Positions 3,355 through 24,325 of a DNA stretch of 64,000 nt are shown piece after piece. The notes beneath the pieces were generated by a model. The model did not search any database, was not told where the DNA came from, and worked only from the letters and a program-made list of their open reading frames with translations. The translations under genes and the position numbers were made by a program. The stretch's first letter is position 1; every line of letters begins with the position of its first letter. The stretch is taken from positions 80,516-144,515 of the forward strand of contig JBDHWW010000002.1 in assembly GCA_039810425.1 (NCBI GenBank), read 5' to 3'. Origin of the DNA: Pseudobdellovibrionaceae bacterium. GTDB lineage: Bacteria; Bdellovibrionota; Bdellovibrionia; Bdellovibrionales; Bdellovibrionaceae.

Positions 3355-4779
3355 ATGGGCTTTAAAATAATTTCTCCCGCGCAGTTAGAAATTCAGCTGC
3401 GGCGGTTTGAAATTCGTCTATCGCAATACTGTGCCGCCAGATTTAAGTGGCTCACTCCTCTGGCGGCAGCGCTTCTGGTTCTCTTAGCCTTTTGGACTAA
3501 ATCCCTGATTGAAGTAGACCCGAAGAGTTTGCAAAACTCCGGCATGTTCTTGTTTACCCACCATGCCCGTTATGTCATGCCTTTTCTTCTGGCGGGTGCG
3601 GGAATCTCTATTTTTTTCCATCGCAAAAATCGGGCGTATTATACGACAGCCGTTACCATGATCGCCTGGGCACTGAATTGCTACATGCTTTTCCTGGGTA
3701 AAGTGCCCGCGGATGTTTTCATCTGCATTCTTTGTTCCTTTCCAACGAATTGTATCTTTACATACTATTTAGGGGTCCATCGCCGCGAAGGCAGGCCCCG
3801 GGTGAGCCTTTCCATCGGCATGATCGCGTACTTTGCATTGACATGGGTTTACATCAGTACGCGACTCTACTCGCAGGATGAATATGGGCAGTTACTACTG
3901 TTTTGGAATTTCAAGCTGCAGTACATGATTCTTGTCGCCATTCAGCTGGCTTTCGCGTTTTCTCCCCGGCCGGTGGATCCATTTCTTGCTTATAATCCGG
4001 TGACAGCGGCCCACAGTATACTTTGGCCCGTCACGACTTTGTTGGCCCGGCGAAACCGCCCTGCGATTTCGCGACTCTGGTGGAATGGGTTTTGGTGCGT
4101 AATTTTGGGATATCTGATTATCTCTCTGCGCATTCAATTGGATAAATCAGACTTGGACGTTTCTAAAAATCTCTTTATTCGATCGACCTCACGCTATTTT
4201 CTGCTGATTCTATCCGACGTTGGTGTTTTCAATCTCGTGACGGGTGTTGCAAGACTTTACGGCTACCGCGCTCGCGATGCCACGAGCTTTTCTTGGTTGG
4301 CTCGAACTCCAGCGGAATATTGGCGCCGTGGCAGCGTTTACCACTACGACTTCATCAATAGATATCTTTATCGTCGGCTATGGAAACGCATCCGGATCCG
4401 ATTTGTAGTAGCTTTCATTTGTTTCTTTTTCTTCTATGTGATGAAAAATGGGGCCCTGGACGTGGGGGCCATGTTCCTAAATTGGATGGGCGCTGATATT
4501 CATGGCGCGTTTTATCGTAGCCCCGATACCCGTTACTCGGTGATTTTGTTCCTCCTGCACTTTCTATTGCTGTACACGACTCAGAGGTATTGGTTTTTTG
4601 AATGGTCACACCAAAAGAAAGTTTGGCAATCGTGGGCCTCGGTTCTCGCAACCTATGCCCTGCAAATATCGGCCATTGCTCTAGCCGTTGTATTGAACAC
4701 TCATGGCCATCAATGGTTGATGCATCTTTGGAAAATTCTTACTTTATTTGGGTCAGGGGGCGATCTAAAGCTTCTGTAA
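3355..4779 (+). CDS. Divergent MBOAT-family membrane-bound O-acyltransferase
   Basis: Multiple TM helices; ARTPAEYWRRGSVYHYDFINRYLY resembles MBOAT S..EFWRRWH....F..YVY; candidate His in LFLLHF. Confidence 0.6.
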   Translation: MGFKIISPAQLEIQLRRFEIRLSQYCAARFKWLTPLAAALLVLLAFWTKSLIEVDPKSLQNSGMFLFTHHARYVMPFLLAGAGISIFFHRKNRAYYTTAVTMIAWALNCYMLFLGKVPADVFICILCSFPTNCIFTYYLGVHRREGRPRVSLSIGMIAYFALTWVYISTRLYSQDEYGQLLLFWNFKLQYMILVAIQLAFAFSPRPVDPFLAYNPVTAAHSILWPVTTLLARRNRPAISRLWWNGFWCVILGYLIISLRIQLDKSDLDVSKNLFIRSTSRYFLLILSDVGVFNLVTGVARLYGYRARDATSFSWLARTPAEYWRRGSVYHYDFINRYLYRRLWKRIRIRFVVAFICFFFFYVMKNGALDVGAMFLNWMGADIHGAFYRSPDTRYSVILFLLHFLLLYTTQRYWFFEWSHQKKVWQSWASVLATYALQISAIALAVVLNTHGHQWLMHLWKILTLFGSGGDLKLL

Positions 4780-5551
4780 CTTTCTTCACTTTAGACATCA
4801 TGCTTTTGAAATCATCAAAAGTCAGCGCTTGAGGTCCATCTGATAGCGCTTCCGCAGGACAAGGATGTACTTCCACGATAACGCCGTCAGCACCCGACGC
4901 CGCCGATGCAATTGCAAGATCTGGAACTAGGGCGCGGATCCCCACCGCATGTGACGGGTCGACAATGACTGGAAATGACGTATTCTTCTTTACGTAAACG
5001 ACCGCATTTAAATCTAGAGTGTTACGAGTCGCCGTTTCAAATGTTCGAATTCCGCGCTCACAAAGAATGACGTTTTCGTTACCACCGTTTGTGATGTACT
5101 CCGCTGCTTTAATCCACTCATCGATCAGGGCGGCGAACCCACGCTTCAAAAGGACCGGTTTGTTCTGCCTGCCCAGTTCTTTTAAGAGCGAGTAATTAAA
5201 CATGTTCCGCGCACCCACTTGAAACATGTCGACGAAATCATGGACCTCTTCGACTTGCTCCGCGTCGGTAATTTCCGAAACGAGACCCATGTTCGTTTCT
5301 TTTAAAACTTCTCGAACAAAATCAAACGAGCTTTCTCCCAAACCTTGAAAGGTCTTCGAAGACGTGCGCATCTTCCAAATCCCCCCGCGAAGTAAGCAGG
5401 CCCCATTGGATTTCACTGTCTGGGCTGTATCTAGAAACTGTTTTTTACTCTCGATGGAACAAGGGCCCGCAATGACTGAAAAGCTTTCGCCGCCGACTTC
5501 TACATTTCCGTAAGCAGTTCTAATTTTCACAACGCGGGTGAAGGGATTCAT
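4739..5551 (-). CDS. aroF: DAHP synthase, type I-beta, catalytic barrel only
   Basis: IAGPCSIE, RGGIWKMRTS, QVGARNM, LLKRG, CERGIR, VDPSH, EVHP, SDG. Confidence 0.92.
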   Translation of the reverse strand: MNPFTRVVKIRTAYGNVEVGGESFSVIAGPCSIESKKQFLDTAQTVKSNGACLLRGGIWKMRTSSKTFQGLGESSFDFVREVLKETNMGLVSEITDAEQVEEVHDFVDMFQVGARNMFNYSLLKELGRQNKPVLLKRGFAALIDEWIKAAEYITNGGNENVILCERGIRTFETATRNTLDLNAVVYVKKNTSFPVIVDPSHAVGIRALVPDLAIASAASGADGVIVEVHPCPAEALSDGPQALTFDDFKSMMSKVKKVTEALDRPLTQIK

Positions 5552-5731
5552 ATAATAAGTATCGGTAAATATTAAACTTACCTCAAGCGCTCTCTCGCTG
5601 AAATGAACAGAGTTAACATCGCCGGCTACTTTTAAAATGTGAAGCCCGCACTAGGTCTAGCACCCAATCACTTTTTGCGCTGGTTTTTCGTACCGAGGAG
5701 TATAATAATTACTAAACAGTGAGAGGGAATC

Positions 5732-6028
5732 ATGAGCAAAAACGATACAGCACTGGCCATCTATGAGCTGAGAAATCAGATCGACCTGATAGACAATCAA
5801 ATTGCTGAAGCCCTGAATAAGCGCGCTGCCATCGTCGAAGAAGTTTGGACACTGAAACAGCAAAGCCAGCTCCCTTTTATTGATCAAGGCAGGGAAAACG
5901 CCATCTTCGCCCGGGTTCGCTCGATCGCAAAAGAGCCTCTGACGGCGGACTCCATGCAAAACATCTTTCAATGCATTCTCCACGAAGTCCGACCAAGAAT
6001 TAAGAGTGCAAAAGCCAAATCAGGATAA
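5732..6028 (+). CDS. Chorismate mutase type II (AroQ-like), stand-alone
   Basis: LRNQIDLIDNQIAEALNKRAAIVEEVWTLK...IDQGRE; SD GAGGGA; TATAAT at 5701. Confidence 0.85.
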   Translation: MSKNDTALAIYELRNQIDLIDNQIAEALNKRAAIVEEVWTLKQQSQLPFIDQGRENAIFARVRSIAKEPLTADSMQNIFQCILHEVRPRIKSAKAKSG

Positions 6029-6031
6029 AAA

Positions 6032-7504
6032 GTGGTCGCTAAAAACGTAAAGAAAAAAACACCCTTTGAAGTCGAGCCTGGCTTCTACCTAGAAGACAAC
6101 CGCAACCAACGGGCTGTCGTCCCCGTCACCAAAGAAACTCTTGAAACCAAACACGCAGCCATTATGCCTGAATGGGTGGTCGAAGGAAAAAGCGTACTCG
6201 ATTTGGGCTGCTGCCTGGCGGCTACGGGACATTGGTGTCTTTCTTATGGCGCAAAAAAGTACACTGGCGTGGAACTCCAGCCCGTCTATGCCAAAAAAGC
6301 CAAAGAGCTTCTTGGCAAGCATTGGTCTAAGGATCAGTTTAAAATTGTCCAATCGGAAATTTCTGATTTTCTCGATGAAGTCAAAAAAGATGAATACGAT
6401 ATCGTGATGATGGCTGGCGTGCTTTATGTCTTCCTCGACTACTTCTCAGTTCTGGAGAAAATGGCCTATGCTTCGAAGGAATGGGTTCTGCTGGAATCCA
6501 TCATGCCACAAAAAAATTTAGATCCAGAAACTCCATATGTCGAATTCGTGAACAAGCAAACCATCACCTTACCGAACGGGCAAGAACGCGCACGCGGTAT
6601 TGGCAGTCGTGTGAGTCCCGGCGGCTTAAAGATGGTTATGGAGCACTTTGGTTTCACAAGCCAAGAGGGTATTATTACCCCGGCTGCGGTTAAAGACACT
6701 CACGATGCTTTCAACGAAGTAATTCCGGGTTGGAAATCTCCGGTGCGTTTTATGATGCGCTTTCAAAAAAGTGGCGCAAAAGTCGCGGATTTATCCACCG
6801 AGCTCAAAACGGGTAGATTCAAACAGCCTAAAGCCGGCTTCGACTCCTACAAGCCCGGAACGAAATTGAAAGCCGGCTCTTGGCAGTTTAACGACATAGT
6901 CGCCGATGAGTTTGAAAATATCGCACTGACTTCGATTCCCCGCTACAAAGAAGTCATCGGCATGTGTGTCGAACTCGCCGCCAAAGCATATCCGGATAAA
7001 AAGTGCCGTGTTCTGGATGTGGGTTCTGCCATTGGCAAAACCATGGACGAATTCCATAGCAACGGATTCAAAGACGTTTGGGGCGTTGAAAAGTCCGAGG
7101 CCATGATCAAGGGGTCTAAATACCGTGATCATGTTATTCACTCCGACACTTTCCCGCCTGGCCAAAAGCCCTTCCACATAGTGTGCGCGAACTGGACACT
7201 TCATTTCGTGAAAGAGCGCCGGGCTTATTTGAAAGATATCTACAATGGCCTGGAGAAAGATGGCTTTTTAATTTTGTCTGATAAAACTCAGGGAAATCCA
7301 TTTCTTCTTGAGCTGTATCATGATTTTAAGCGCCGAAATGGCCTGACAGAGCAGCAGATTGCAGACAAAGCGGAATCTATCAAAGGGGTTCTGGAACCTT
7401 ATCCTTTGACTTGGTATTTGGTCGAATTGAAAAACATCGGTTTTAACGAGGTTCACGTGATCAATGCCTACTATCACTTCACAACCTTTTTGGCGCGCAA
7501 GTAG
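6032..7504 (+). CDS. Two-domain class I methyltransferase: N-terminal CmoB-like, C-terminal CmoA-like
   Basis: Domain 1 VLDLGC...YDIVMMAGVLY; domain 2 WQFNDIVADEF...SIPRY, VLDVGSAIG, NWTLHF, YHDFKRRNG..EQQIADK, collinear with CmoA. Confidence 0.75.
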   Translation: MVAKNVKKKTPFEVEPGFYLEDNRNQRAVVPVTKETLETKHAAIMPEWVVEGKSVLDLGCCLAATGHWCLSYGAKKYTGVELQPVYAKKAKELLGKHWSKDQFKIVQSEISDFLDEVKKDEYDIVMMAGVLYVFLDYFSVLEKMAYASKEWVLLESIMPQKNLDPETPYVEFVNKQTITLPNGQERARGIGSRVSPGGLKMVMEHFGFTSQEGIITPAAVKDTHDAFNEVIPGWKSPVRFMMRFQKSGAKVADLSTELKTGRFKQPKAGFDSYKPGTKLKAGSWQFNDIVADEFENIALTSIPRYKEVIGMCVELAAKAYPDKKCRVLDVGSAIGKTMDEFHSNGFKDVWGVEKSEAMIKGSKYRDHVIHSDTFPPGQKPFHIVCANWTLHFVKERRAYLKDIYNGLEKDGFLILSDKTQGNPFLLELYHDFKRRNGLTEQQIADKAESIKGVLEPYPLTWYLVELKNIGFNEVHVINAYYHFTTFLARK

Positions 7505-7548
7505 TTTTATATTGATCGCTAAATTTGTTTTTGAGACAGTTTATATCT

Positions 7549-8247
7549 ATGGAAGCAGCTAAAGTAAGAGCCTCACGCAGAAGTATTTGTATTTTGTGGC
7601 ATTTGAAATCGAAAAGAATTCTCTGCGTGACTCGCTATACTAGTACCGCCCAAGCACTGATGTCTTCCGGAATGGAGATGGGTTTTAATATTGTGTCTAG
7701 GGCCAAACCCATCCTCCACTCCGAAGACCGTGTCGAGCGTTTAAGACGTATCCCGCCGGAAGAACTCCCGAACTATCTTTTCCATCGCCAGTCCGGGACC
7801 ATCGTAAAAATTGAGAATCCAAAGCCCCTCACAGAAAAACAGAAAAATGCCTGCATTCTGCTCGCCGGCCGCGCTCGTTATCTTCGACGGGTCACTCGGG
7901 TGGTGAGTCAGGCTCGTAAACGCGTGGCGCCTTCTGAGCTCTATGGAGCCTTCGTTGACCAGATTCGCCGCGAACAAGCGTTGAAGTTCCGTGCATCCGG
8001 GTATGACGAGGCTTTGATTCAAGAATGCCTTTTCGTATTTCAGTATGCCCAAGTGAAGAAGATCACGGCACGAGCGGCGGCTGATGAGATCATCTTCCGC
8101 TTTAGCTTGTTTGAAGCTGACCTGTGGAAAACAGAAGAAGTGAAGTTGAAATATTACGACCTCTTTGCCAATGCCGCAAATTTAGAAGACCTTCATGATA
8201 TTTTTCAAGATTTTATCAGGGAGTACTATTTAAATGCCCGTGTCTAA
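7549..8247 (+). CDS. Hypothetical protein, probable paralog of 10383..10955
   Basis: ORF in operon, overlaps next start; N-term ILWHLKSKRILCVTR, C-term ANAANLEDLHDIF. Confidence 0.7.
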   Translation: MEAAKVRASRRSICILWHLKSKRILCVTRYTSTAQALMSSGMEMGFNIVSRAKPILHSEDRVERLRRIPPEELPNYLFHRQSGTIVKIENPKPLTEKQKNACILLAGRARYLRRVTRVVSQARKRVAPSELYGAFVDQIRREQALKFRASGYDEALIQECLFVFQYAQVKKITARAAADEIIFRFSLFEADLWKTEEVKLKYYDLFANAANLEDLHDIFQDFIREYYLNARV

Positions 8248-9349
8248 AAATATTTATATTTATAATCCCATGCTCATTACGAAGAAAAAGCTGCAGGATC
8301 TGCCGGGAATCCGGGCTTTTCGGCATGTGTTACATCTTTTCAATGAAAATGTTGTTTTGGTCGATCGCACCAATACCATTCAGGTGCCTGTGAATGTCAC
8401 GGTTCACGCTCCAATTCCGGAGTTTCGTATGATTGACAAGTCTTACGAACAAATTTGTGATGAGCGTGCCCAGGAACTGCTTCACCGGTCGGATGAACAT
8501 GATTTACCGATCAATGTGTTCTATTCGGGCGGCATTGATTCCACTCTCGTTCTGGTTTCTCTCTTAAAAAATGCGACGGAAGCGCAGAAAAATCGCATCT
8601 GTGCTTTTATGTCCCAAGAATCTATCAACGAAAATCCCGCTTTCTACCGCGATCACCTCCGCGGCAAAGTCAAACTCGAGGCGGCCGCAATTTATCCCTA
8701 CGCGCTGTCTAAGCGAGCCCTATTTGTCGGTGGTGAGCACAATGATCAAATCTTTGGGTCGGCATTATTTAAAGACTTCCTAGACCTCCATGGTGAAGAT
8801 GCCCTCGCGAAGAAATACAGCCGTAGTCAAATGGGGCAAATGTTTGGTCGAAAATGGCACAATGATGTCGTGATCTCTTGGTATATGGACCTCTTTGAAA
8901 AAGTGCGTGCGGCGGCTCCTTGTCCGGTGGATTCCAATGCGGATTTCCTATGGTGGATTAATTTTTCTTTAAAGTGGCAGTCCGTTTATTTCCGAATGCT
9001 AACTTATGCTTCGGACTTTGTGATTCACAACATTGATCGAGATTTCATTGATAATAACTTCTTTCATTTCTATGGTACTGATGCTTTCCAGCTCTGGTCC
9101 ATGGGGAATCCGGATAAGCGTGTCGTGACGAAATGGGAGTCTTACAAGCAAGAAGCAAAAGATGTGATTTATCGCTTTAATAAAGATTCAGAGTATCGCG
9201 ACTATAAAACAAAAAATGGCTCACTCGCATGGGTGATTATGCATCAGATCCAAAAGAACTTTATTGATGATCAAATGCATATGTACATGACTTTGCCGCG
9301 TAAGGATTGGTTCAATCCCAATAATAGCTTTAGGGACGCTCCATTTTAG
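8234..9349 (+). CDS. Asparagine-synthetase-like adenine nucleotide alpha hydrolase (no glutaminase domain), copy 1
   Basis: PP-loop YSGGIDST, GGEHNDQIFG, WWINFSLKWQ, HFYGTDAFQLWS, YKQEAKD. Confidence 0.75.
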   Translation: MPVSKNIYIYNPMLITKKKLQDLPGIRAFRHVLHLFNENVVLVDRTNTIQVPVNVTVHAPIPEFRMIDKSYEQICDERAQELLHRSDEHDLPINVFYSGGIDSTLVLVSLLKNATEAQKNRICAFMSQESINENPAFYRDHLRGKVKLEAAAIYPYALSKRALFVGGEHNDQIFGSALFKDFLDLHGEDALAKKYSRSQMGQMFGRKWHNDVVISWYMDLFEKVRAAAPCPVDSNADFLWWINFSLKWQSVYFRMLTYASDFVIHNIDRDFIDNNFFHFYGTDAFQLWSMGNPDKRVVTKWESYKQEAKDVIYRFNKDSEYRDYKTKNGSLAWVIMHQIQKNFIDDQMHMYMTLPRKDWFNPNNSFRDAPF

Positions 9350-9352
9350 AAT

Positions 9353-10393
9353 ATGGAAAAACTCCTAAATCTGAGCTTTAAATCTAGCCAAAGCCTTAAG
9401 AAGGTTATCTTTCAGGAAGATCTTTTATTTGATCCCTTCGATAAGGCTGTTAGCCGTCTCAACTACAAGCCGGATCTTTTCAACTACGATCTTCAATCGG
9501 AAACAGTTATTAGCATTCAAAAGCTCCACAAAGCAAAGACATGGGAAGAGTGCTGTGCGGAAAGGGCGTTAAGCTTACTGAAACTCGAATATGAAAATTA
9601 TTGGTTTGCCTACAGTGGTGGCATCGATAGCACGGCGATGCTCACTTCGATCCTGAAGTTTTGGCCCGTCAAAGACCTAGCTCGTGTTTCCGTTGTGCTC
9701 ACCCATCACTCTGTCGAGGAGAATCCATTTTTTTTTGATAAGTATATCGTGAAGTTTAATCTTATTAACACTCTTCGCCCGCTCTCAAAAATGTTGTTGA
9801 AGGAACGCACGCTCTTGGTGACCGGTGAACTTGGCGATCAACTTTTTGGCTCCGATATACTAGGGGCTGGTAGCCGCCATTATGGCGATGAGGTCCTTTT
9901 TAAAAACTATAAAGACGTGGCTCCAAAGATTATTGAAGCTTACCTTGGCACAAAAGGGCCTGGAAAAAGTATTTTTGAGCACTTTTATCCGATTGTTGAA
10001 GAAGCTCCTTTCCCGATTAAGACAGCCTATGACTTTTTTTGGTGGTTGAACTTCTCGCAAAAATGGCAACACGTGAAATTTCGTTTTACCGAAAGCAAAA
10101 GTTGGCATTTGGCGGCCAAATATGGCAGTCATATCCAGCACTTCTACGACAGCCCGGACTTCCAAAGCTGGAGCTTACAGAATCATGATTTAAAAGTTCG
10201 CAGTACTTGGCAGTCTTACAAGTTCACTGCAAAGGACTACATTGCGGATTTTACCAAGGATCCAGGGCAGCTGGATCTGATGAAGATTCAAAGCCTGGAA
10301 AAAACCTATGTCCTCGATGAAAAACGTATTGGCGTAGACTCGAACTACAAACCGATCCGAGCCTTTGAGGAGCTCAGGCACTATGCCAGATAG
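9353..10393 (+). CDS. Asparagine-synthetase-like adenine nucleotide alpha hydrolase, copy 2
   Basis: YSGGIDST, TGELGDQLFG, WWLNFSQKWQ, HFYDSPDFQSWS, YKFTAKD. Confidence 0.75.
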   Translation: MEKLLNLSFKSSQSLKKVIFQEDLLFDPFDKAVSRLNYKPDLFNYDLQSETVISIQKLHKAKTWEECCAERALSLLKLEYENYWFAYSGGIDSTAMLTSILKFWPVKDLARVSVVLTHHSVEENPFFFDKYIVKFNLINTLRPLSKMLLKERTLLVTGELGDQLFGSDILGAGSRHYGDEVLFKNYKDVAPKIIEAYLGTKGPGKSIFEHFYPIVEEAPFPIKTAYDFFWWLNFSQKWQHVKFRFTESKSWHLAAKYGSHIQHFYDSPDFQSWSLQNHDLKVRSTWQSYKFTAKDYIADFTKDPGQLDLMKIQSLEKTYVLDEKRIGVDSNYKPIRAFEELRHYAR

Positions 10394-10955
10394 AGTAAAG
10401 CTCTTCATTTATACCGACGCTAAAACTCACCGTGTACTTTTAACAAAGCGAAGTACGAGGTTCAATTTTCTGGTAACTGTTCAAGGTGTTCATGTGCACA
10501 TTCTCAGTTCGCGCCTTGAACTTCCGGAAATCAAGCCTATGGCTCAAACTTACACACCTAAAGTGGGACTGAAGAAGGCTGGATCAAAACTTGGCAAGCC
10601 GGCGCAAGAGCGCCTGGGCATTTTGCGTCGAAAGGTCGAGATCGTCATTCTGGTGCTGACGAGCCTCTATATTATGCGCGATGAGATGAAGGCCACCTTC
10701 GCAAAGCGTGTTCTTGAAAACACCCCGATAAGTTCAGATAACTTCAAAAAATACTGGCTTTTTTCCGCCGAAGAAAAGAATCTCCTATCTGTGCGTCTTC
10801 AAAAATTCGAGAAAAAGTTCACTATGGCGGTCAATGCCGCAGAAACCCTGGATCAAGTGGATGCTCTTTACGAGCATCTGCATTTTAATGTGAATCTTGG
10901 GGTCTACTCAGTGATGAATAGAGAGAGAAAGGGGCTCCATGGCACAAAAAGTTAG
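10383..10955 (+). CDS. Hypothetical protein, probable paralog of 7549..8247
   Basis: SD GAGGAG before ATG 10383; N-term IYTDAKTHRVLLTKR, C-term VNAAETLDQVDALY. Confidence 0.7.
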   Translation: MPDRVKLFIYTDAKTHRVLLTKRSTRFNFLVTVQGVHVHILSSRLELPEIKPMAQTYTPKVGLKKAGSKLGKPAQERLGILRRKVEIVILVLTSLYIMRDEMKATFAKRVLENTPISSDNFKKYWLFSAEEKNLLSVRLQKFEKKFTMAVNAAETLDQVDALYEHLHFNVNLGVYSVMNRERKGLHGTKS

Positions 10956-11283
10956 TATTGATATCTTAAAGAAGGCCCTTCTGGAGGTTAATCCTCGTGT
11001 GCGTAAGATAAACTTCACGGCACAAACAGATCTCTTTGAAGAGGGAATTCTGGATTCATACTCCGTGATTCAGCTTGTGAATACTTTTGAAAAGCGCTTT
11101 GGTATTGTCTTTGATTATGCCGATTTGAAGGCGGCGTATTTTAGGAACCTCATAAGTCTTATCGGTATCCTCACGATGAAGTATAAGCTCAAGGAGGGCA
11201 AGAATCCTCCGCCAAATAAGAAGAAAAAGAAAAGAAAGGCCAAAAAAGCCGGGGTCGTCAAAAAGGCTAAAAAGAAGAATTAA
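10939..11283 (+). CDS. Acyl carrier protein (DltC-like) with Lys-rich tail
   Basis: DLFEEGILDSYSVIQLVNTFEKRFGI, with phosphopantetheine-acceptor Ser in LDS; tail NKKKKKRKAKKAGVVKKAKKKN. Confidence 0.8.
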   Translation: MAQKVSIDILKKALLEVNPRVRKINFTAQTDLFEEGILDSYSVIQLVNTFEKRFGIVFDYADLKAAYFRNLISLIGILTMKYKLKEGKNPPPNKKKKKRKAKKAGVVKKAKKKN

Positions 11284-11936
11284 AACTTCGTAAATGTTCG
11301 ATTTAACATCGGATGAGAATCATCTGTCGGCCCGGTATCCGAATCCGGATGAAAGGCGATAATTTTCAATTTTTCGCCGAAAGAATTGAATGAGTGAACT
11401 AAACCCTCCGGTAAATAGAAGGCCATGCCCGGTTTCAAAGGGAGTTTCTGATTCGGCATCACACACTCCCCTTCACCTTCAAACACGACACCAAGACGAA
11501 CCGTCGGATGAATATGCGGCGTTTGAACCACTTTGGGCGGAAATACTAAAAGGTTGAAAACGGGATCCCCCATACGGGGCGGCGGAATGATAATTGTTGT
11601 GTTGGAATTATCGATGTAACAGAGACGACCACTGTCTTCTACGGGGCCACCTACATGGAGAAGCCCCCGGTATCCGACGCGTTCGATGACGATGATTTCG
11701 CCATCCCCTTTGATATGAAACGGGCCGGGCGCAGAGAAGTACATGCCACCCTGAAGTGTGACATAGTGTTGCCCCTGGCGCTGCAATTCATATTTGCCAT
11801 TGAGAACGAATCCAAAGTAAGTACTTGTCGGGAGCGCAAAACTCTCATCACAGCGTCCGAAGCCTTTTAAGACACTCGGATACATCGTGGCAGACGCATC
11901 TAAAACACATCCTTCTTTAACCTGCTTATAAATCAT
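11280..11936 (-). CDS. Cupin-domain protein
   Basis: HIHP...GVVFEGEG and P.GLVHSF cupin motifs; FHPDSDTGPTDDSHPM. Confidence 0.75.
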   Translation of the reverse strand: MIYKQVKEGCVLDASATMYPSVLKGFGRCDESFALPTSTYFGFVLNGKYELQRQGQHYVTLQGGMYFSAPGPFHIKGDGEIIVIERVGYRGLLHVGGPVEDSGRLCYIDNSNTTIIIPPPRMGDPVFNLLVFPPKVVQTPHIHPTVRLGVVFEGEGECVMPNQKLPLKPGMAFYLPEGLVHSFNSFGEKLKIIAFHPDSDTGPTDDSHPMLNRTFTKF

Positions 11937-12025: not shown

Positions 12026-12994
12026 TTAAATCGTCGCCTTCGCTTTCTGCTTCTTATGCATTGTTTTTGGCTTCTTTGTTTCCGCCTTCATCTTTTCTGC
12101 ATTTTCTTTTCTATTTTTTTCCATGGCTAAATAGCTTGAGATCATCGGCTTGATTATTTGAAAGCTCTTATTGACGCCATTCGAATTTAGCTGCGTCCTC
12201 GAACCACCCATAAGATTTTCTGAGCGGAAAAGTTGATAGAACTCCCGCGTAAGTAATTGAAAATTGAAGCCAGAATAAGCCAAATATTCTTTTATCTCTT
12301 TTTTATCTACGTTAGCGCCGCTGAAAAATATTTGAGCTACAGAGGAACTCATTTGATTGTCAGGAAATATTTCACGGTTATATCGTATTCTTTCTGGAGA
12401 TATAAGAAAGACGACTCGGGCTTTATCTTTCAATAAGAACTGGATAGACCGGAGTGGCACGAAACTTACATCGAGAAAAAATTCCCTTTTGTCGGTAGCC
12501 GAGCCTTCGACATTCCAGCTCGTCTCCAATCTATCCTGTATGAAAATGGCCTTCTTAACGGGCAACAGATAATCTAATCTAGGCAACAACACTCGCGACC
12601 ACGTGGGTTGATTCGTAAAAATTTCATCTTTAGAAAAGACTTCTGCAGTGAGAGGCGTGTCAGGTAAGTTCCTGCTAAAAAGCACTTCTTCAAAATCCCT
12701 TGCAAACATTCTGGACGGCTGGACATAGAAAATGTAGTCAGGCTGTGACGTCTTTAGACGCTCTTGGAGAAAGAAGTACTGGCTAAGAGCGAATCCCGGA
12801 GATGTCTTTAGCTCCACTTGAACCGGCCTTCCCAAAGACTGTAACAAATAGGATTCCAGGTTGTGCAGGCTCGTTTTGAGTTCTGGCGTATCAGCACTCC
12901 AAATCTCCGGCGCAACAAGCCACACGATCAGTGGCCCGTCATCTGCTTTAGCCTGTAGACATAATAGTACAAGAAAGCTTAAAACGTACTTCAA
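12026..12994 (-). CDS. Exported protein, possibly degenerate SGNH/DltD-like fold
   Basis: Signal peptide; SPGFALSQY...SQPDYIF and QLNSNG resemble SGNH blocks II/III/V, but catalytic Ser/His are not evident. Confidence 0.45.
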   Translation of the reverse strand: MKYVLSFLVLLCLQAKADDGPLIVWLVAPEIWSADTPELKTSLHNLESYLLQSLGRPVQVELKTSPGFALSQYFFLQERLKTSQPDYIFYVQPSRMFARDFEEVLFSRNLPDTPLTAEVFSKDEIFTNQPTWSRVLLPRLDYLLPVKKAIFIQDRLETSWNVEGSATDKREFFLDVSFVPLRSIQFLLKDKARVVFLISPERIRYNREIFPDNQMSSSVAQIFFSGANVDKKEIKEYLAYSGFNFQLLTREFYQLFRSENLMGGSRTQLNSNGVNKSFQIIKPMISSYLAMEKNRKENAEKMKAETKKPKTMHKKQKAKATI

Positions 12995-14325
12995 TAGAGT
13001 TCTCCAGTTTTGACTGCGTGGTTTAATTTATACTGATTTGGATAAAAAAGAACCTTTTGAGCCCAATCTTTCATCCCGTTACGATACCAATAAATGCTCT
13101 TATATCCTTTGGATTTTAAGTAAATAGCGGCTTTATACGCACGCCAATCATACTCGTTCTCACCAATGAGAACGATCGTCTTATTTTTTGGTATGTTGAT
13201 ACTATTCTTATAGCCTTCCTTGTGTCTCCTCAATCCTTTCGCATTCATCCTGCCACGAAAGACCGGCATGGAAAGTGCGTTTCTTTTTTCGGGGAAAGAC
13301 ATCGCTAATGTTCCCGGCAAAGAGAATTTTTTTTCCAAGCGAACGTCGACTATTGTATTTTTCTTTTTATCCCGCATAAACTCTCGAACTTGATTTGCCT
13401 CGACGACTATTGCCGCATCAGACTTATCCGGCGTTAGACACGGCTTTGCTTTGTCTCCATACTCCGCCATTCCACCGGGAAACCAACCTACGTTTCTATA
13501 CCCCATAGAGACTAGCAGTGTGACCGTGTTATAAGCAGAGTACTCTGCGGGACACCCAGAAATGATATTTACAGGCTCGCCTTTATTTGCGGGAAGAGGG
13601 TTTTTACTAAACATGATCTTATGTTTTTTCATTTCCTCCGGTGACAAAATCTCAGAGGAAATTCGCATATAGTCAACATACTCAAGAGCCTTTGCATACT
13701 CCAGGGGAACCTTCTTTTTTAAGGTCGCGGGCCGGATATCATATACGTGACTGTTTTTTAAACTCTCCATGAACTCCTTTTTTTTAAGACTCTTAGCCTC
13801 AGGATGCACGCGAGGACTTCCATAAGATTTCAAAGTGTCGGACAAATGATCCGCTATGACAGTTACGGCAATAAGAGGAGCCATATCAAGATCGGGACCT
13901 TTTCTCCCGGTAAAGTCAGCAATCTTATTTTTAAAATAATTTAACTCTTTTTCAGTCGCCTGGTGTGATTCACGTTTTTTGTACTCAGCATAGTTAATTT
14001 TTTCTACTTTCAGGATTTTAACAGTCCCTCTGTTTGCCCGCCAAAATACCAGGCTTTCTGAATTTTTCGTCTCTACCAACTCAATTTTTTGATTAGGCAT
14101 AAAACATTTATCGGTGTTCACAAAATAGAGCGTTTCTGGCTGGTTCTTAATCACCTTCCAAAATTTGGCACTATTCATGTGTATATTTTTTTCCGCTGTT
14201 TTCTCTGAGCATGCTACGGCCGTGACGCCCTCCACGGCTGTCTTTTCGGCCGCCACCACAGGCCAGGCCAGTAGTGATAAGGCTAAAATGAAACAAGCAA
14301 TATAACCGTTATAATTCACTTCCAT
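12991..14325 (-). CDS. Exported tandem rhodanese-like domain protein
   Basis: Signal peptide; two repeats VYDIR...MGYRNVGWFPGGMAEY and IVDVR...KGYKSIYWYRNGMKDW. Confidence 0.7.
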   Translation of the reverse strand: MEVNYNGYIACFILALSLLAWPVVAAEKTAVEGVTAVACSEKTAEKNIHMNSAKFWKVIKNQPETLYFVNTDKCFMPNQKIELVETKNSESLVFWRANRGTVKILKVEKINYAEYKKRESHQATEKELNYFKNKIADFTGRKGPDLDMAPLIAVTVIADHLSDTLKSYGSPRVHPEAKSLKKKEFMESLKNSHVYDIRPATLKKKVPLEYAKALEYVDYMRISSEILSPEEMKKHKIMFSKNPLPANKGEPVNIISGCPAEYSAYNTVTLLVSMGYRNVGWFPGGMAEYGDKAKPCLTPDKSDAAIVVEANQVREFMRDKKKNTIVDVRLEKKFSLPGTLAMSFPEKRNALSMPVFRGRMNAKGLRRHKEGYKNSINIPKNKTIVLIGENEYDWRAYKAAIYLKSKGYKSIYWYRNGMKDWAQKVLFYPNQYKLNHAVKTGELY

Positions 14326-16712
14326 CGAACAAGCCCCCCAGACGTATCGAGTGAAAAAATAATTTCGCCATTGTTAATCCAAGGAACAGAACTCAAACGG
14401 TCTCCGAGATTAATCCGCCTTTTAATGGTCCCTTTTAAAGAATTAAAAATACATAGTTCTCTTTCAAAACAATTTGCCAGAAGCTCCTCCTGCTGATTTT
14501 TCCCTTTTTTTTCTACAAGCAATACCGGGCTTGAGAAAAAAACTCCGCTTCCTTGATGCCGCCACAGTTCTTTTCCGTTCGAGAAGTCAAGGGCTATGGT
14601 TCTTCCAGAAGACGTGCTAATGTAGACAGCATTCGCTTTTTTTGACCATGTCGGCGAGCTTTGACAAGCGCCTTCTAAAGGCGAATTCCAAAGGAGCTCA
14701 CCCGTAGCTGCCTTCACCTTATAGATATTCTTGTCCCAAGAGCAGAAGACCACCGAACCATCAGCGACCATGGGTGTGCCCTTAATCGCCAGTCCAATGG
14801 GGTACCGCCATGCAAACTTCCCGGTCACCACATCTAACGCGTTTAAATAGCCATTGTTCGAGCCCACAAAGACCAGCCTGCCGTCTTCTGAAAGTGCGGG
14901 CGACGAATGCGCCTGATCTCCAAAGAAGGGACTCTTCCACTGAAGCTCTCCTGTGGCGGCGTCAATTTTGGCAATAAAGCCGTCCGGTGGTGAAAAGGTC
15001 TCTACAGCAACGTAGATTGAACCTCGATCATATAAAGGCGAAGATCCAATAGTCTGGCCCAGAGGTAATAGCCAATTGAGTTCACCTGACTCTTTATTAG
15101 CTGAATAAAGCATGCCGTCGTAGTCACCCCAATAAACTGAGTTTCCCGCTATAAGCCCGCTGCCGTGGATTCCTTTGTCCGCTGATGTCGTCCACCGCCA
15201 AATTTCCCTTCCTGACATATCTATCGCAGAGAAATAGCCCTGATCAGAACCAGCAAAGATCTTAGTGCCGTCTGATATCGGAGAACTTTTACTCGCTGTA
15301 TGCCGTGAATCATTCCAATTTGGTTTGCGCCATATAGGTCGGCTCATCGGATGAATTAGCTCCTTAGTCTGGACAACTCCAGTACGTTGAGCATCTTCAC
15401 GATACATCACCGTCCTCTGCGAAGAATCCAATTTCGCACTTTGATAGCGCCATGGAGTGATTTCAGCCGAGCCATTCTTATTTGTCTCTATCCAAGGGTT
15501 GCTCCAAAGAGGGTTAAAGGATGGACTGCTCTTACAAATGTCATCCAATTTTACCGTCGGATGAAAATTGCTTTCACTGCTCAATCGCGTCTGCAAAAAA
15601 AGGCTTACGGAAGCAGCGTCATTGTTTTTGCGATTGTACTCGCAAAGACGACGTGCGAATTCGAGATATAAGTAGGGCTCACAGCGAATCCGGGTTCCCA
15701 CGTTTTCCAAATTGATCTGCATTTGAACATAGTGCCCTACTCCTTTATTGATCACAAAGCTATGTCGGCAAACCGCGCGGGCATCAAACATGTTGAGAGA
15801 GACAAGCCGGCCCTCCCCTGTTAGCGCCGAATTACCAGACAAAAGCATGGGGTAAATTTGGGCAAGAATAAATGCCCCAATTAAGAAACGATGTGGTCTA
15901 TAAGACCAAATATCAGAAAGTCGTGGCGACGGAGTATCCGTCTTAAACATGAATATAAAAATGCTGAGGACACAAAACATAACGGCTGGATAAAATAGTC
16001 CTACAATTTGAATGGAGTATATGTGAAAGATAAAAAATTGAATCAAGGAGACTTTTTGTAAATGTCGTCTCGAACTCAAAAGTAAAAAAGAAATCCCAAT
16101 CTCTAAAACTATCACATATACCGTGGCAAGCTGAATTGGAATCCATTTTAATGGCCCAATATCACCATAGAGAGCACTTCCTGAAATCCACTCATTGTTC
16201 AGCTTAAGAACACCTGCTCCTAGATAGATCATGACAATGGCTATTGGAATCAATTGAATTTTACGTGGGACTAACAAGAAAATAAGAATAAAGATGAAGT
16301 GGATATAATGAAAGTTGCCCATCAAACGATAGTCTTGCGAATAAATAAAGAACTTAAATAATAGAATAAAGAATGAATAGCTGTAAGCCGCGGCAATTGA
16401 TTTTCTTAGCCATAACGTCGATCCAATCAAACCCGCAATAAAATAAGTGACAAGAATCCAACGCCACAGCTCTGGCGTGCCAAAGCGAAAACTTTCGCAA
16501 AATTGCATAAAGGGCTGGCAATACCCCGGCGTGGCTTTGCTGATCTGGTTGTAGACTTCGCCGACAAAAAACCAATAAGAAAAAGTGAAGAAGTGAATAA
16601 GGGACAAAAGAAATCCATAATTTCGCAACGCCGGCGATTTCTGAATTTCTTCCCTATTAACCCGTATGAATTGCTTACTTTTTGCTGGCAAACCAGACGT
16701 CAACGACTTCAC
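14316..16712 (-). CDS. HTTM (vitamin K-dependent carboxylase-like) membrane domain fused to PQQ-like/BamB-type beta-propeller
   Basis: IYLGAGVLKLNNEWISG, GNFHY, GRLVSLNMF; C-terminal repeats SSP...G.L.A.D..TG...W. Confidence 0.75.
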   Translation of the reverse strand: MKSLTSGLPAKSKQFIRVNREEIQKSPALRNYGFLLSLIHFFTFSYWFFVGEVYNQISKATPGYCQPFMQFCESFRFGTPELWRWILVTYFIAGLIGSTLWLRKSIAAAYSYSFFILLFKFFIYSQDYRLMGNFHYIHFIFILIFLLVPRKIQLIPIAIVMIYLGAGVLKLNNEWISGSALYGDIGPLKWIPIQLATVYVIVLEIGISFLLLSSRRHLQKVSLIQFFIFHIYSIQIVGLFYPAVMFCVLSIFIFMFKTDTPSPRLSDIWSYRPHRFLIGAFILAQIYPMLLSGNSALTGEGRLVSLNMFDARAVCRHSFVINKGVGHYVQMQINLENVGTRIRCEPYLYLEFARRLCEYNRKNNDAASVSLFLQTRLSSESNFHPTVKLDDICKSSPSFNPLWSNPWIETNKNGSAEITPWRYQSAKLDSSQRTVMYREDAQRTGVVQTKELIHPMSRPIWRKPNWNDSRHTASKSSPISDGTKIFAGSDQGYFSAIDMSGREIWRWTTSADKGIHGSGLIAGNSVYWGDYDGMLYSANKESGELNWLLPLGQTIGSSPLYDRGSIYVAVETFSPPDGFIAKIDAATGELQWKSPFFGDQAHSSPALSEDGRLVFVGSNNGYLNALDVVTGKFAWRYPIGLAIKGTPMVADGSVVFCSWDKNIYKVKAATGELLWNSPLEGACQSSPTWSKKANAVYISTSSGRTIALDFSNGKELWRHQGSGVFFSSPVLLVEKKGKNQQEELLANCFERELCIFNSLKGTIKRRINLGDRLSSVPWINNGEIIFSLDTSGGLVRWK

Positions 16713-18237
16713 CCTTCATTCTTTTACCGCTCTTCAATAGAGTAAAAGAGGACCGCTCTCTTAGCTCCGCCCGACTCCCAATTGCCAACGCCGCATTCTT
16801 CGAGTATCTCAAAGAAATAGATTCGACACCCGCCTCTTTCAAAGTTTTTAAATCCTTTTTTAGAGTTACACCCTTCCCTGTGGAGTCATGCCAAAGCCGC
16901 AGTTGGGGATAAATCGGATCTTTGGCGTCGATAACTCCATCTCCATTCTCATCAAATACGGCCAAGAGTTCAAACCCATTTAAGGAACTATCCTCGCTGC
17001 CAAACATTTCAGTGACATCGTTGATTATTCCATCGCTGTTTCTATCCAAAACTAAGAAGGCCGCATTAAGCTCTGGCTCTGGCCAATAAGTTTTATCCGC
17101 ATAACTACTCATTTTGAAATCGATGAATCGATTAAACTGGGCTTCCTGTCGATCGAAGAACAGCATCAATGGAGAAAAGTACCCCCCACAGAAATCGACT
17201 TGGCCTGGAAAGGCCGCGGTGATATTTAAGACTTTGAAATCGCTGGACCAAAAGGCTTCCCAATTTACGGAAATACCGCCATCTCTGCCCATATATTTTT
17301 GAATGTCCGCGGGCGCGTTAGTGTAATTGAATGGATTTGGAACTGGATTAACAACCGCATCGATGGCCCGTATTTGGTTCCACCAGGCGAAGCGTGGCTG
17401 GCCCCATCCGGGATCTTTATTAAATGCCGGCCCATCACGCATTGGTACCTCATCCACCACGGGGGTTCCTGGATCATTGATCGTTCCGCCACCGCCATCG
17501 CCGCCGCCATCACCGCCATCGCCGCCTGCATATGACTTTTCCGTAGCGCCCCATGAAAGCCACTTAAATGGAGTCATGAAAGAGGATAGTGCCGTTTGAA
17601 TTCCCCAAGGCCTTATCTTTTGCTTTTCTTCAAGCTTTGAGACCTTAACTTGTCCCACGACACTGTACACATCTTGAGTGACATCAACTTGGCTCACTAA
17701 AGAAGCGAAGTCGGAATTCGTATAGGTATTTCCCGTGAGTGGAACCCCGGGGGTTATGCTTAGTGGTGCATTAAAAATGATAGTATTTCCAAAAGCGCTG
17801 GTGAGGCCTGGCTGGCGTCCGGTCGGCTCGTAAGGCCAGTCATTGTTGTCTGGCGATTTATCAACATAAAAAACAGAGCCATTAACAATAGCCAGCGGAT
17901 TAGGAAAGGGTACCATCGTGCTTTGCTTTGTATTCATAACCATCCAGCCAGGAAATACGATGGAAAATGAATCTCCATTTCGAAAGGCCATACTAAACTT
18001 GATACTTCCGGTCGGCGAAATAGGATTTGGAACACTACGAAGATTCGTGCCAAAACACGAAACATTCATTCTTACTTGAAAGCCCATTGTAGGATCGCTA
18101 AAAGAGCTGGCTTGATCAGAAAATATTATTGTATCTGTGGCCCGGCCCGCTTGGCTGGGACGAACCAACACTTGAGCCCCCTGCACCGGGCCTGATGTTG
18201 CTGCCAATAAAATGCTTAGAAATACTTTTTTCTTCAT
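16675..18237 (-). CDS. Secreted protein with C-terminal EF-hand-like Ca-binding domain
   Basis: Signal peptide; SPLML, LVLDRNSDGII, NGFELLAVFDENGDGVIDAKD, LRLWHD; Gly/Asp linker. Confidence 0.7.
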   Translation of the reverse strand: MKKKVFLSILLAATSGPVQGAQVLVRPSQAGRATDTIIFSDQASSFSDPTMGFQVRMNVSCFGTNLRSVPNPISPTGSIKFSMAFRNGDSFSIVFPGWMVMNTKQSTMVPFPNPLAIVNGSVFYVDKSPDNNDWPYEPTGRQPGLTSAFGNTIIFNAPLSITPGVPLTGNTYTNSDFASLVSQVDVTQDVYSVVGQVKVSKLEEKQKIRPWGIQTALSSFMTPFKWLSWGATEKSYAGGDGGDGGGDGGGGTINDPGTPVVDEVPMRDGPAFNKDPGWGQPRFAWWNQIRAIDAVVNPVPNPFNYTNAPADIQKYMGRDGGISVNWEAFWSSDFKVLNITAAFPGQVDFCGGYFSPLMLFFDRQEAQFNRFIDFKMSSYADKTYWPEPELNAAFLVLDRNSDGIINDVTEMFGSEDSSLNGFELLAVFDENGDGVIDAKDPIYPQLRLWHDSTGKGVTLKKDLKTLKEAGVESISLRYSKNAALAIGSRAELRERSSFTLLKSGKRMKGEVVDVWFASKK

Positions 18238-18238
18238 T

Positions 18239-19234
18239 TTATTTTCCTAGCCTTTGCTCCGACGTTTGAGGTGTCACATCAATGGTGATTGTTGGATCGC
18301 TGATGTTAGGTCGGGCGAATACCACCTGAACGATGCGATCGCCAATGAGAACCGGAGAACCAAAGCTCGCTCCATTCCAAGTACTATAGTAAAAGTCGCC
18401 CGCATGGTTTCCGTAGGCCACTACCGGATTTGCTTTTATCTCATACTTTATCAATCGCACGGTTCGCACCAAGAGTGGCGGGATACCGCCACTAGCTGGT
18501 GGAATGGTTTTCAAATAGTCATCAAAATCTAAGATACTAACTGCGTTGTTTTGAGCATTTTTAAAAGAAACCACGCCACCAAAATTCTCTGTATTGCAGG
18601 GTGTTCCAGGGACATTTGTACAGCGGATAAAGTAACTGGTTGAATTCGGCATGGTGCTCGTCGAAGCTCCAATATTTCTCATCGTCGAGGGCACATAAAC
18701 TTCGAGAACCTGGGTCGCCTTCATTAGGAAGTTTGGGTTCAAAGCACTGACAAATTGCCTAAAGAGACTCCAGTCCAACAGGGAGGTCGCCGGCGTGGAA
18801 GCCAAGGAAAGGTTGTAGAATTTCGCCGGGTCCATAAGTAGAACTTCGGGGTATCCACTACTAACTTGCGCGGTGAATGATTCGCTTAAAAGCGCAAGAA
18901 AACTAGTGCTTCCGCCAGTTAAGTTCAGCGTGATTTTCCGAGTCATGCCCGGAGTACTTGTCGTCACCGCCAGATCGCGGTTTAAATCATAGAAATTTTG
19001 ACTGTTATCGTCGGGTTGAAGCACATTATTGAAAGATGGCGCTGCATTTTTCAAGTGCATCCAAACATATCTTTCAGCAAGTGCCTGTGTAGTGTGAGAG
19101 TCGCTCTTAACACGAACTCGATTTTCCATAATACGCATGTATTGGACTATGTCCATAAGCGCGAGCAACACCATGCCGGCAAGGGCGATGGCGACACACA
19201 ACTCTGTGATGGTGAAACCCCGACTGTCTCTCAT
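18239..19234 (-). CDS. Type IV prepilin-like (PilW/PulJ-like) protein
   Basis: Class III signal MRDSRG|FTITELCVAIAL. Confidence 0.8.
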   Translation of the reverse strand: MRDSRGFTITELCVAIALAGMVLLALMDIVQYMRIMENRVRVKSDSHTTQALAERYVWMHLKNAAPSFNNVLQPDDNSQNFYDLNRDLAVTTSTPGMTRKITLNLTGGSTSFLALLSESFTAQVSSGYPEVLLMDPAKFYNLSLASTPATSLLDWSLFRQFVSALNPNFLMKATQVLEVYVPSTMRNIGASTSTMPNSTSYFIRCTNVPGTPCNTENFGGVVSFKNAQNNAVSILDFDDYLKTIPPASGGIPPLLVRTVRLIKYEIKANPVVAYGNHAGDFYYSTWNGASFGSPVLIGDRIVQVVFARPNISDPTITIDVTPQTSEQRLGK

Positions 19235-19240
19235 ACCTAC

Positions 19241-19777
19241 CTAGTTTGTATTAATCAAAAAGTAGTAAAAATTATCCTGCAACTCTGTTGCCGTTGCACT
19301 CAGATCTTTCTGAATATGGGCGACACGAATCGTTCCTTCAAACATCCCACTCACGTTTGTCGAGGGTAAAATTGTATATGAAATTAAACCGTCGCAATAC
19401 GAATCCGTGGGTAAATTGGATCCATTAGGCGTCGCTGTTAATGTCGGATTATTTGGATCACATTTTGGAGGGTTACCATTACTACCGACATACATAACAG
19501 CTCCAGCGTAACCGTAAGAGAAACTTGACAAGAAACTTTGGCTGGTCCCCGCATTAATAGTAAAGTTTTTCTGATAAACTGCAGGTTCACCTTTAATCGT
19601 TTCAATAATTTGAGAAACGACTTGATATTCAGATGTCGCTCTCACTGTATTACTGTCTGTTTTAAAAAGCTGAAGACTTCCATCCACAATCATATAGAAC
19701 ACTGCCACCAGCAAAACCATCGCTAACAAGCTTTCAATAATAGTCTGACCATGGTTGTTTCTGATGAAATTTCTCAC
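19241..19777 (-). CDS. Type IV prepilin-like (PilV-like) protein
   Basis: NNHG|QTIIESLLAMVLL with Glu at +5. Confidence 0.75.
   Translation of the reverse strand: MRNFIRNNHGQTIIESLLAMVLLVAVFYMIVDGSLQLFKTDSNTVRATSEYQVVSQIIETIKGEPAVYQKNFTINAGTSQSFLSSFSYGYAGAVMYVGSNGNPPKCDPNNPTLTATPNGSNLPTDSYCDGLISYTILPSTNVSGMFEGTIRVAHIQKDLSATATELQDNFYYFLINTN

Positions 19778-23497: not shown

Positions 23498-24325
<828 letters not shown>

Follow-up and report, generated by a model that had tools for sequence, protein, structure and literature searches.

A CmoB-like/CmoA-like fusion protein beside a chorismate mutase in Bdellovibrionales, a candidate carboxy-SAM synthase and transferase

Few acceptors of carboxy-S-adenosylmethionine (Cx-SAM) are known: 5-hydroxyuridine (ho5U) of tRNA, a peptide thiol, a peptidyl-cytidylate and phage DNA cytosine. 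Escherichia coli CmoA and CmoB form cmo5U34 in tRNA, whereas TglE/TglF (3-thiaglutamate) and MccS/MccB (microcin C-like) are reported to make Cx-SAM and use it on a non-tRNA acceptor within a biosynthetic cluster (PMC10491745, bioRxiv 10.1101/338681). Synechococcus phage S-B43 is reported to cluster a Cx-SAM synthase lacking Arg199 (CmoA), a transferase (CmoX) and an asparagine-synthetase-like amide ligase (CmoY) (PMC12783734), and with these precedents a non-tRNA acceptor for Cx-SAM is not new in itself. Here we describe a 490-residue protein encoded in a 64,000-nucleotide stretch of a Pseudobdellovibrionaceae genome (contig JBDHWW010000002.1, positions 80,516 to 144,515; hereafter the window). 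It consists of two class I methyltransferase domains, an N-terminal one resembling CmoB and a C-terminal one resembling CmoA. We assign a probability of roughly 55% to the reading that this fusion and its neighbours carry out Cx-SAM synthesis, carboxymethyl transfer to a non-tRNA acceptor and then amide ligation.

As the original prediction had stated, a stand-alone chorismate mutase (CM) gene ends 3 nt before the fusion, whose GTG start at 6032 has AGGA 6 nt upstream, and a 3-deoxy-D-arabino-heptulosonate 7-phosphate (DAHP) synthase gene is transcribed divergently; the coordinates were confirmed (Table 1). The proposed two-part architecture was likewise recovered by profile searches with each half, clearly for the C half and weakly for the N half. 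The closest named relatives are also from Bdellovibrionales (P0001, 93%; L007, 73%), and 74 of 77 matches span at least 91% of the query, which argues that the fusion is no assembly artefact. An AlphaFold model of the fusion from a 57-sequence alignment gave a predicted local distance difference test score (pLDDT) of 93.6 and a predicted TM-score of 0.62, with a loose linker at about residues 265-283.

The C domain closely resembles CmoA. Its hhalign alignment to the E. coli enzyme covers 215 columns (99.9%, E 3.9e-36), its top sequence matches in the Protein Data Bank (PDB) are 1IM8, 4GEK and 4IWN, and 4GEK is also its best VIA match (Z 25.6, rmsd 2.4, 207 aligned), with a Rossmann fold and the helical lid of CmoA. 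Against TIGR00740 (CmoA) it scores 96.7 bits, under the curated cut-off of 193.3. The CmoA residues listed as S-adenosylmethionine (SAM) contacts in PMC3663124, namely Y39, D62, G64, D89, N132 and F137, correspond to Y305, D329, G331, E353, N387 and F392, and Ser66 corresponds to A333. Residues F20, F28, Y39, D62, G64, F137, K165, K185 and K198 are common to canonical, phage and family sequences. The three lysines are all kept in 147 of 151 locus C domains, 107 of 109 representatives and 6 of 7 phage CmoAs; 31 canonical CmoAs keep them with one exception, K198 without exception, and none of the three aligns in MM_2633 (3DTN) or 8K5L. From this pattern we infer that the CmoA-type lysines may bind prephenate and, from sequence likeness more broadly, that the C domain may perform Cx-SAM chemistry. 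In a FastTree phylogeny rooted on one phage sequence, the C domains of the family form one clade (122 leaves, support 0.965).

Likeness of the N domain to CmoB is weaker, with 20.5 bits against a curated cut-off of 209 (PRK15068/TIGR00452) and an hhalign match at 96.2% (E 1.6e-9). CmoB is the NCBIfam model most often matched by family members (33 of 57, all weakly, best E 1.9e-9), and PDB profile matches of this domain are generic. The alignment begins at CmoB residue 83, and thus the CmoB-specific N-terminal domain, given as about 100 residues in PMC10491745, is missing. CmoB K110, G197, Y200 and R315 have equivalents in K40, G129, Y132 and R239. Among 113 N domains, R239 is kept in 105, Lys or Arg at position 40 in 108, and Tyr, His or Phe at position 132 in 107 (Tyr 66, His 34), and D22, R24 and R27 are near-invariant across the family. 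Modelling the N domain from its sequence alone gave a pLDDT of 43.5, and the model was discarded.

Genomic context supports a dedicated prephenate supply in this lineage, another proposal of the original prediction. In the source Bdellovibrionales genome (G000, 99.88% complete), the cassette CM is the sole CM match, and neither AroH nor a U32 hydroxylase was found; searches for prephenate dehydratase (PDT) and prephenate dehydrogenase (PDH) also returned none, BacA/AerD decarboxylases and PheC dehydratases not having been searched. AroB and AroC were found, and the genome has no cmoA or cmoB match other than the fusion. Residues R14, R31, K42, D51, R54 and E55 of CM fit the catalytic set of E. 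coli AroQ in what we take to be its numbering, and other residues seem to stand at the Ser84/Gln88 positions. The genome encodes DAHP synthase twice: the cassette copy shares 79% identity with a 279-residue paralog in a menD/menF/menG menaquinone cluster, and the third PF00793 match in the genome is KdsA. The cassette enzyme matches PRK08673 from profile position 85 only, the N-terminal regulatory domain being absent, but the menaquinone-cluster paralog is also short, so this feature is not special to the cassette enzyme. The short DAHP synthase as a deregulated specialist was rejected on the same ground, the housekeeping copy.

Comparison of related genomes places the fusion where a prephenate user is usually found. 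Three of the seven genomes of the genus, G000, G175 and G211, carry the fusion, each time with CM immediately 5' and with no U32 gene found. CM stands beside U32 in G584, G585 and G586, where the fusion is absent, and the one-contig genome G131 yielded neither CM, U32 nor the fusion. The DAHP synthase gene adjoins CM in the window, in G175 (L214) and in L056, and is missing from the G211 cassette. No PDT was found in G175, while G211 retains the cassette CM despite possessing PDT, PDH and a second CM. Outside the genus we inspected 26 short stand-alone CM loci, 20 of them hand-picked across genera from 103 CM-positive genomes and 6 added to these. A TrhP/RlhA-like U32 gene lay inside the fetched stretch in 19; the others comprised four in aromatic-pathway contexts, one beside HPPD and two without assignment. 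Since U32 hydroxylases are reported to need prephenate (PMC6599085), an orphan CM in this order usually adjoins a prephenate user. The fusion occupies that neighbour place, a pattern among kin genomes rather than a statistical test.

The U32 partners of stand-alone CM genes in Bdellovibrionales (L252-L269, L239, L322-L324) are either TrhP-like, of about 425 residues, or about 850 residues long, and in this arrangement CM apparently serves to supply RNA hydroxylation with prephenate of its own. The cassette resembles these CM-U32 (TrhP/RlhA) pairs in that a stand-alone CM adjoins a putative prephenate co-substrate enzyme, and differs in that the partner is the fusion, in genomes in which no U32 was found.

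The fusion belongs to a wider family. Single-protein query scans of genome and viral contigs gave no loci, whereas alignment queries succeeded, yielding 49 genome, 80 metagenome and 78 viral loci; carriers include Patescibacteria, alpha- and gammaproteobacteria, cyanobacteria and large phages. At 70% identity, the 190 loci that bear the family motif collapse into 81 clusters. The N and C domains occur together in 64 of these, an obligatory-looking pairing (fused in 38, adjacent in 23, near in 3); a further 15 have the C domain only and two lie at a contig edge. Asparagine-synthetase-like genes neighbour the domains in 21 clusters, the 240-residue helical family in 11 and cupins in 8. A single chain unites ligase, N domain, C domain and cupin in P0170, P0177 and P0198, and likewise in P0180 with a partial ligase. 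P0167 joins ligase, N and C domains, P0148 joins C domain and ligase, and in 6 of the 14 long proteins inspected a cupin follows the C domain in the chain. The suspected link to an ATP-dependent ligase is therefore borne out, up to single-polypeptide fusions. A shared-word search for longer forms gave none and was uninformative, as the HMMER scan revealed such proteins. Long proteins such as P0170, P0177 and P0198 look eukaryotic, and P0206, a more distant C-domain cluster, has MMETSP transcript members.

The cassette ligase itself had no direct Pfam match, and its PDB profile matches reached E 0.06-0.5 only. By hhalign it aligns at 96.6% to a PF00733-positive neighbour family and at 30% to CmoY, and S98, G100, D102 and S103 of ligase 1 are invariant. 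CM, DAHP synthase, the acyl carrier protein (ACP)-like gene and the MBOAT-like gene are confined to the Bdellovibrionales, unlike ligase and cupin, and are thus best regarded as local additions; an ACP context, which the original prediction had noted, is not a general feature of the family.

Overall, the fusion would work like the known non-tRNA Cx-SAM systems while falling outside CmoA and CmoB as these families are curated. In common with E. coli CmoA/CmoB it has the two folds, the CmoA lid with most SAM contacts in the C half, and the K110, G197, Y200 and R315 equivalents in the N half. Unlike them, it is a single chain with the B-like half first, both halves score far under the family cut-offs, Arg199, a conserved Lys91 and the CmoB N-terminal domain are lacking, and the partners are a ligase and a cupin. 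The phage S-B43 transferase CmoX is reported to be a DNA cytosine-C5 methyltransferase (PMC12783734), whereas that of the fusion is a CmoB-like class I core; the cassette ligase is only distantly like CmoY, and the C domain falls in a clade separate from phage CmoA. TglE/F are described as close to CmoA/B with Lys91 kept, which by these descriptions sets the fusion apart, and the locus showed no recognisable precursor peptide or pearlin ligase. We found no description of the fusion or of the four-domain module in the literature, with incomplete coverage: the text of PMC12783734 counts 4,257 phage CmoA sequences in its supplement, and some of these may belong to this clade.

Our direct observations are the identities of the genes, their linkage and the residue patterns, and the pathway we propose from them would run as follows. 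The extra DAHP synthase would raise shikimate flux and CM would convert chorismate to prephenate, serving as a local add-on for a host not otherwise making it; phages and epibionts with the module would take prephenate from their hosts. The C domain, as a divergent CmoA, would turn SAM and prephenate into Cx-SAM and phenylpyruvate. The N domain, with its CmoB-type core, would then place the carboxymethyl group on a nucleophile outside tRNA, perhaps a hydroxyl or thiol made ready by the cupin. By analogy with CmoY, the asparagine-synthetase-like ligases would adenylate the new carboxylate and subsequently form an amide. More speculatively, the ACP and MBOAT-like genes may bring the product to an envelope polymer in this lineage.

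Several observations weigh against this proposal, beginning with the C-domain active site. The pocket is rebuilt, with His391 at the position of Gln136 and Trp388 at that of Phe133, and the family invariants W388, H391 and A333 are absent from canonical and phage CmoAs. Ala447 takes the place of Arg199, the residue that contacts the Cx-SAM carboxylate and that is treated as the hallmark of the CmoA family (PMC3663124). Across 151 distinct family domains this column holds Glu in 70, Lys in 35, Ala in 27 and Arg in 10, while canonical CmoAs encoded beside cmoB have Arg in 30 of 30. Phage CmoAs, however, have Arg199 in 2 of 7, and the S-B43 enzyme, identical to S-B05 CmoA, carries Glu at this position; reported to be a Cx-SAM synthase, it has a kcat of 2.33 per s, ten times that of the E. 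coli enzyme at 0.23 per s (PMC12783734). This assayed enzyme rules out the view that loss of Arg199 excludes Cx-SAM synthesis. Arg199 is no valid filter for Cx-SAM synthases, and Ala447 therefore lowers CmoA family membership, not function. Equivalents of E. coli Arg34 and Asn132 are also missing from S-B43 CmoA (L321:101-796).

Further points against it concern the N domain and the CM link. The CmoB carboxylate triad is given as Lys91, Tyr200 and Arg315, with Lys91 reported essential for Cx-SAM selectivity (PMC4482062). Lys91 aligns with K9, yet this position is Lys in just 16 of 113 relatives, and the R315 region aligns with low confidence; the invariant R24 or R27 might substitute for Lys91. 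Only one of 81 clusters has CM adjacent, even though 1 kb or more of upstream sequence is available in 72, and a CM profile built from 31 sequences and run on 210 loci matched only that Bdellovibrionales cluster. None of 24 virus records gave a CM match, and of 13 Patescibacteria genomes two did, neither shown to have it near the module. The CM link is thus one evolutionary event and family-wide linkage is ruled out: the original prediction had named linkage of homologs to CM as its test, and such linkage exists in the Bdellovibrionales clade only. Its self-contained Cx-SAM module accordingly keeps a local prephenate link and loses CM as a family-wide rule, with a chemistry that would follow from sequence. 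A Gracilibacteria genome with a 748-residue fusion member has a stand-alone CM elsewhere (L282:7695-7958).

We consider it improbable, though not far-fetched, that the two domains are plain SAM methyltransferases that modify a small molecule one after the other, for instance by C- or O-methylation of a 2-oxo acid derived from prephenate. His391, Asp417 and Tyr429 would then form a base or metal site as in CysG/BelI-type enzymes, and CM would supply the substrate rather than a CO2 donor. Such enzymes would account for the invariant His391, the lost Arg199 and the poorly conserved Lys91. Fold comparison is also compatible, as VIA does not tell CmoA apart from CysG/BelI methyltransferases (Z 23.9) and tandem phosphoethanolamine methyltransferases head the whole-chain Foldseek list; CmoB stands low in that list, a position of little weight as the N domain lacks a separate fold test. 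The sequence profile is nevertheless strongly CmoA (1IM8 at E 1.5e-37 versus 2e-11 for CysG), the three lysines and lid motifs are CmoA-type, a PDT for phenylpyruvate was not found in G000 or G175, and the N domain carries near-invariant R24, R27 and R239.

That the C domain is a CmoA descendant whose rebuilt pocket makes a different SAM derivative, or draws on a carboxyl donor other than prephenate, with the N domain transferring the group, strikes us as quite unlikely. A single clade with its own invariants would fit this, as would the lack of a nearby CM in most carriers and of any CM found in most Patescibacteria carriers; yet CM is the recruited gene in the one lineage where gene order reveals the supply, and prephenate-using phage CmoAs also vary at positions 31, 34, 132, 133 and 199. 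We give very little credence to a fused cmoAB replacement making cmo5U34 in tRNA. Canonical cmoA and cmoB were not found in the source genome, and ho5U could be available there because a TrhO-type hydroxylase is present. The truncated CmoB-like core argues otherwise, as do the recurrent ligase and cupin partners and the sporadic distribution: the gene is in 2 of 103 other genomes of the taxonomic family, and TIGR00740 matched in 0 of 35 others sampled.

The remaining genes of the locus are set out in Table 1.

Table 1. Coordinates of the cassette genes and of the two fusion domains in the window.
Feature	Position	Strand	Remarks
MBOAT-like membrane protein, 474 aa	3355..4779	+	Putative acyl-transfer step; Bdellovibrionales cassettes only
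Class I-beta DAHP synthase, 270 aa	4739..5551	-	TIGR01361 342.8 bits (cut-off 267.75)
Stand-alone AroQ chorismate mutase (CM), 98 aa	5732..6028	+	PF01817 73.8 bits (threshold 27)
CmoB-like/CmoA-like fusion, 490 aa	6032..7504	+	GTG start; no internal stops
Fusion N domain, aa 1-250	6032..6781	+	CmoB-like transferase core without the CmoB N-terminal domain
Fusion C domain, aa 275-490	6854..7504	+	CmoA-like, NWTLHF clade
Helical protein, 240-aa family	7525..8247	+	True start probably downstream; weak phrog_8983 match
Asparagine-synthetase-like PP-loop ATP-dependent ligase 1	8234..9349	+	SGGIDS and GE..DQ.FG motifs
Asparagine-synthetase-like ligase 2	9353..10393	+	27% identical to ligase 1
196-aa protein without assigned function	10365..10955	+	Bdellovibrionales cassettes only
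Acyl carrier protein-like (DltC-like, DSY serine)	10939..11283	+	PF00550 25.1 bits; DltC models below cut-off; Bdellovibrionales cassettes only
Cupin	11280..11936	-	PF07883; convergent; counted as module part

The 474-residue membrane protein gave no Pfam or NCBIfam match. Atlas MBOAT clusters at 0.84-0.85 provide a lead only, its WRR..Y motif presumably resembles that of DltB/AlgI, and its homologs are confined to L007/L215 and L214. Relatives of the helical protein are usually encoded immediately 5' of the ligase gene. A promoter and terminator scan of the locus scored no better than shuffled sequence. The cassette was rejected as an island by GC content, since its value of 0.457 against 0.490 for the genome is similar to that of the next 10 kb (0.448). 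Beyond the cupin, genes at 12026-16712 (minus strand) are conserved with the cassette in G175 and G211 and encode a 322-residue protein, a multi-rhodanese protein and a 798-residue membrane protein with a PQQ-type propeller, whose N-terminus has what we take to be an HTTM-like motif. A pilin-like cluster (N-methylation motifs) with an EF-hand-containing 520-residue protein follows at 16675-22530 (minus strand), and a Bd3614-like deaminase (PF14439) is encoded at 23498-24316 (minus strand).

Loci elsewhere in the family show further partners. Six C-only loci of Patescibacteria or metagenomes have a PEMT/ICMT-type membrane methyltransferase gene directly 5', an arrangement that fits a donor-making C domain serving different transferases; in Saccharibacteria and related loci, the C domain stands alone directly behind such a methyltransferase in L021:9262-10630, L023, L068, L084, L089 and L107. 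Patescibacteria loci L008, L012, L020, L031 and L128 combine the module with YcaO, a nitroreductase/SagB-like gene, a PQQ-repeat protein whose N-terminus is PRTase-like and a membrane protein resembling solute symporters; this company suggests modification of peptides or proteins. Okeania, Dapis and Trichodesmium (L043-L055) possess a C-only member within a biosynthetic cluster of 2-oxoglutarate (2OG) dioxygenases, TauD, sulfotransferases, an enolase-family enzyme and dehydrogenases. Phage loci L136-L207 have 2OG-Fe(II) oxygenases nearby (12 of 41 viral clusters for two families), as well as radical SAM enzymes, desaturases and TctA/TctC/DctP or MFS transporter genes.

On the broadest view, which we hold only tentatively, an undescribed CmoA clade with a rebuilt active site, marked by His and Trp and by the lack of Arg199, may form the core of a ligase-transferase-synthase-cupin module in large phages, Patescibacteria, predatory bacteria and, probably, eukaryotic microbes. 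Such a module may attach a new amidated carboxymethyl group, or another group derived from SAM, to macromolecules of surfaces or virions or else to a small molecule. The family points to a further class of Cx-SAM acceptor through one tractable 490-residue enzyme, and the remaining pathway enzymes can be read off from the fusion proteins of this family. The lesson of Arg199 affects how many phage and Patescibacteria 'methyltransferases' are to be read, and a fused synthase-transferase could serve as a scaffold for enzymatic carboxymethylation.

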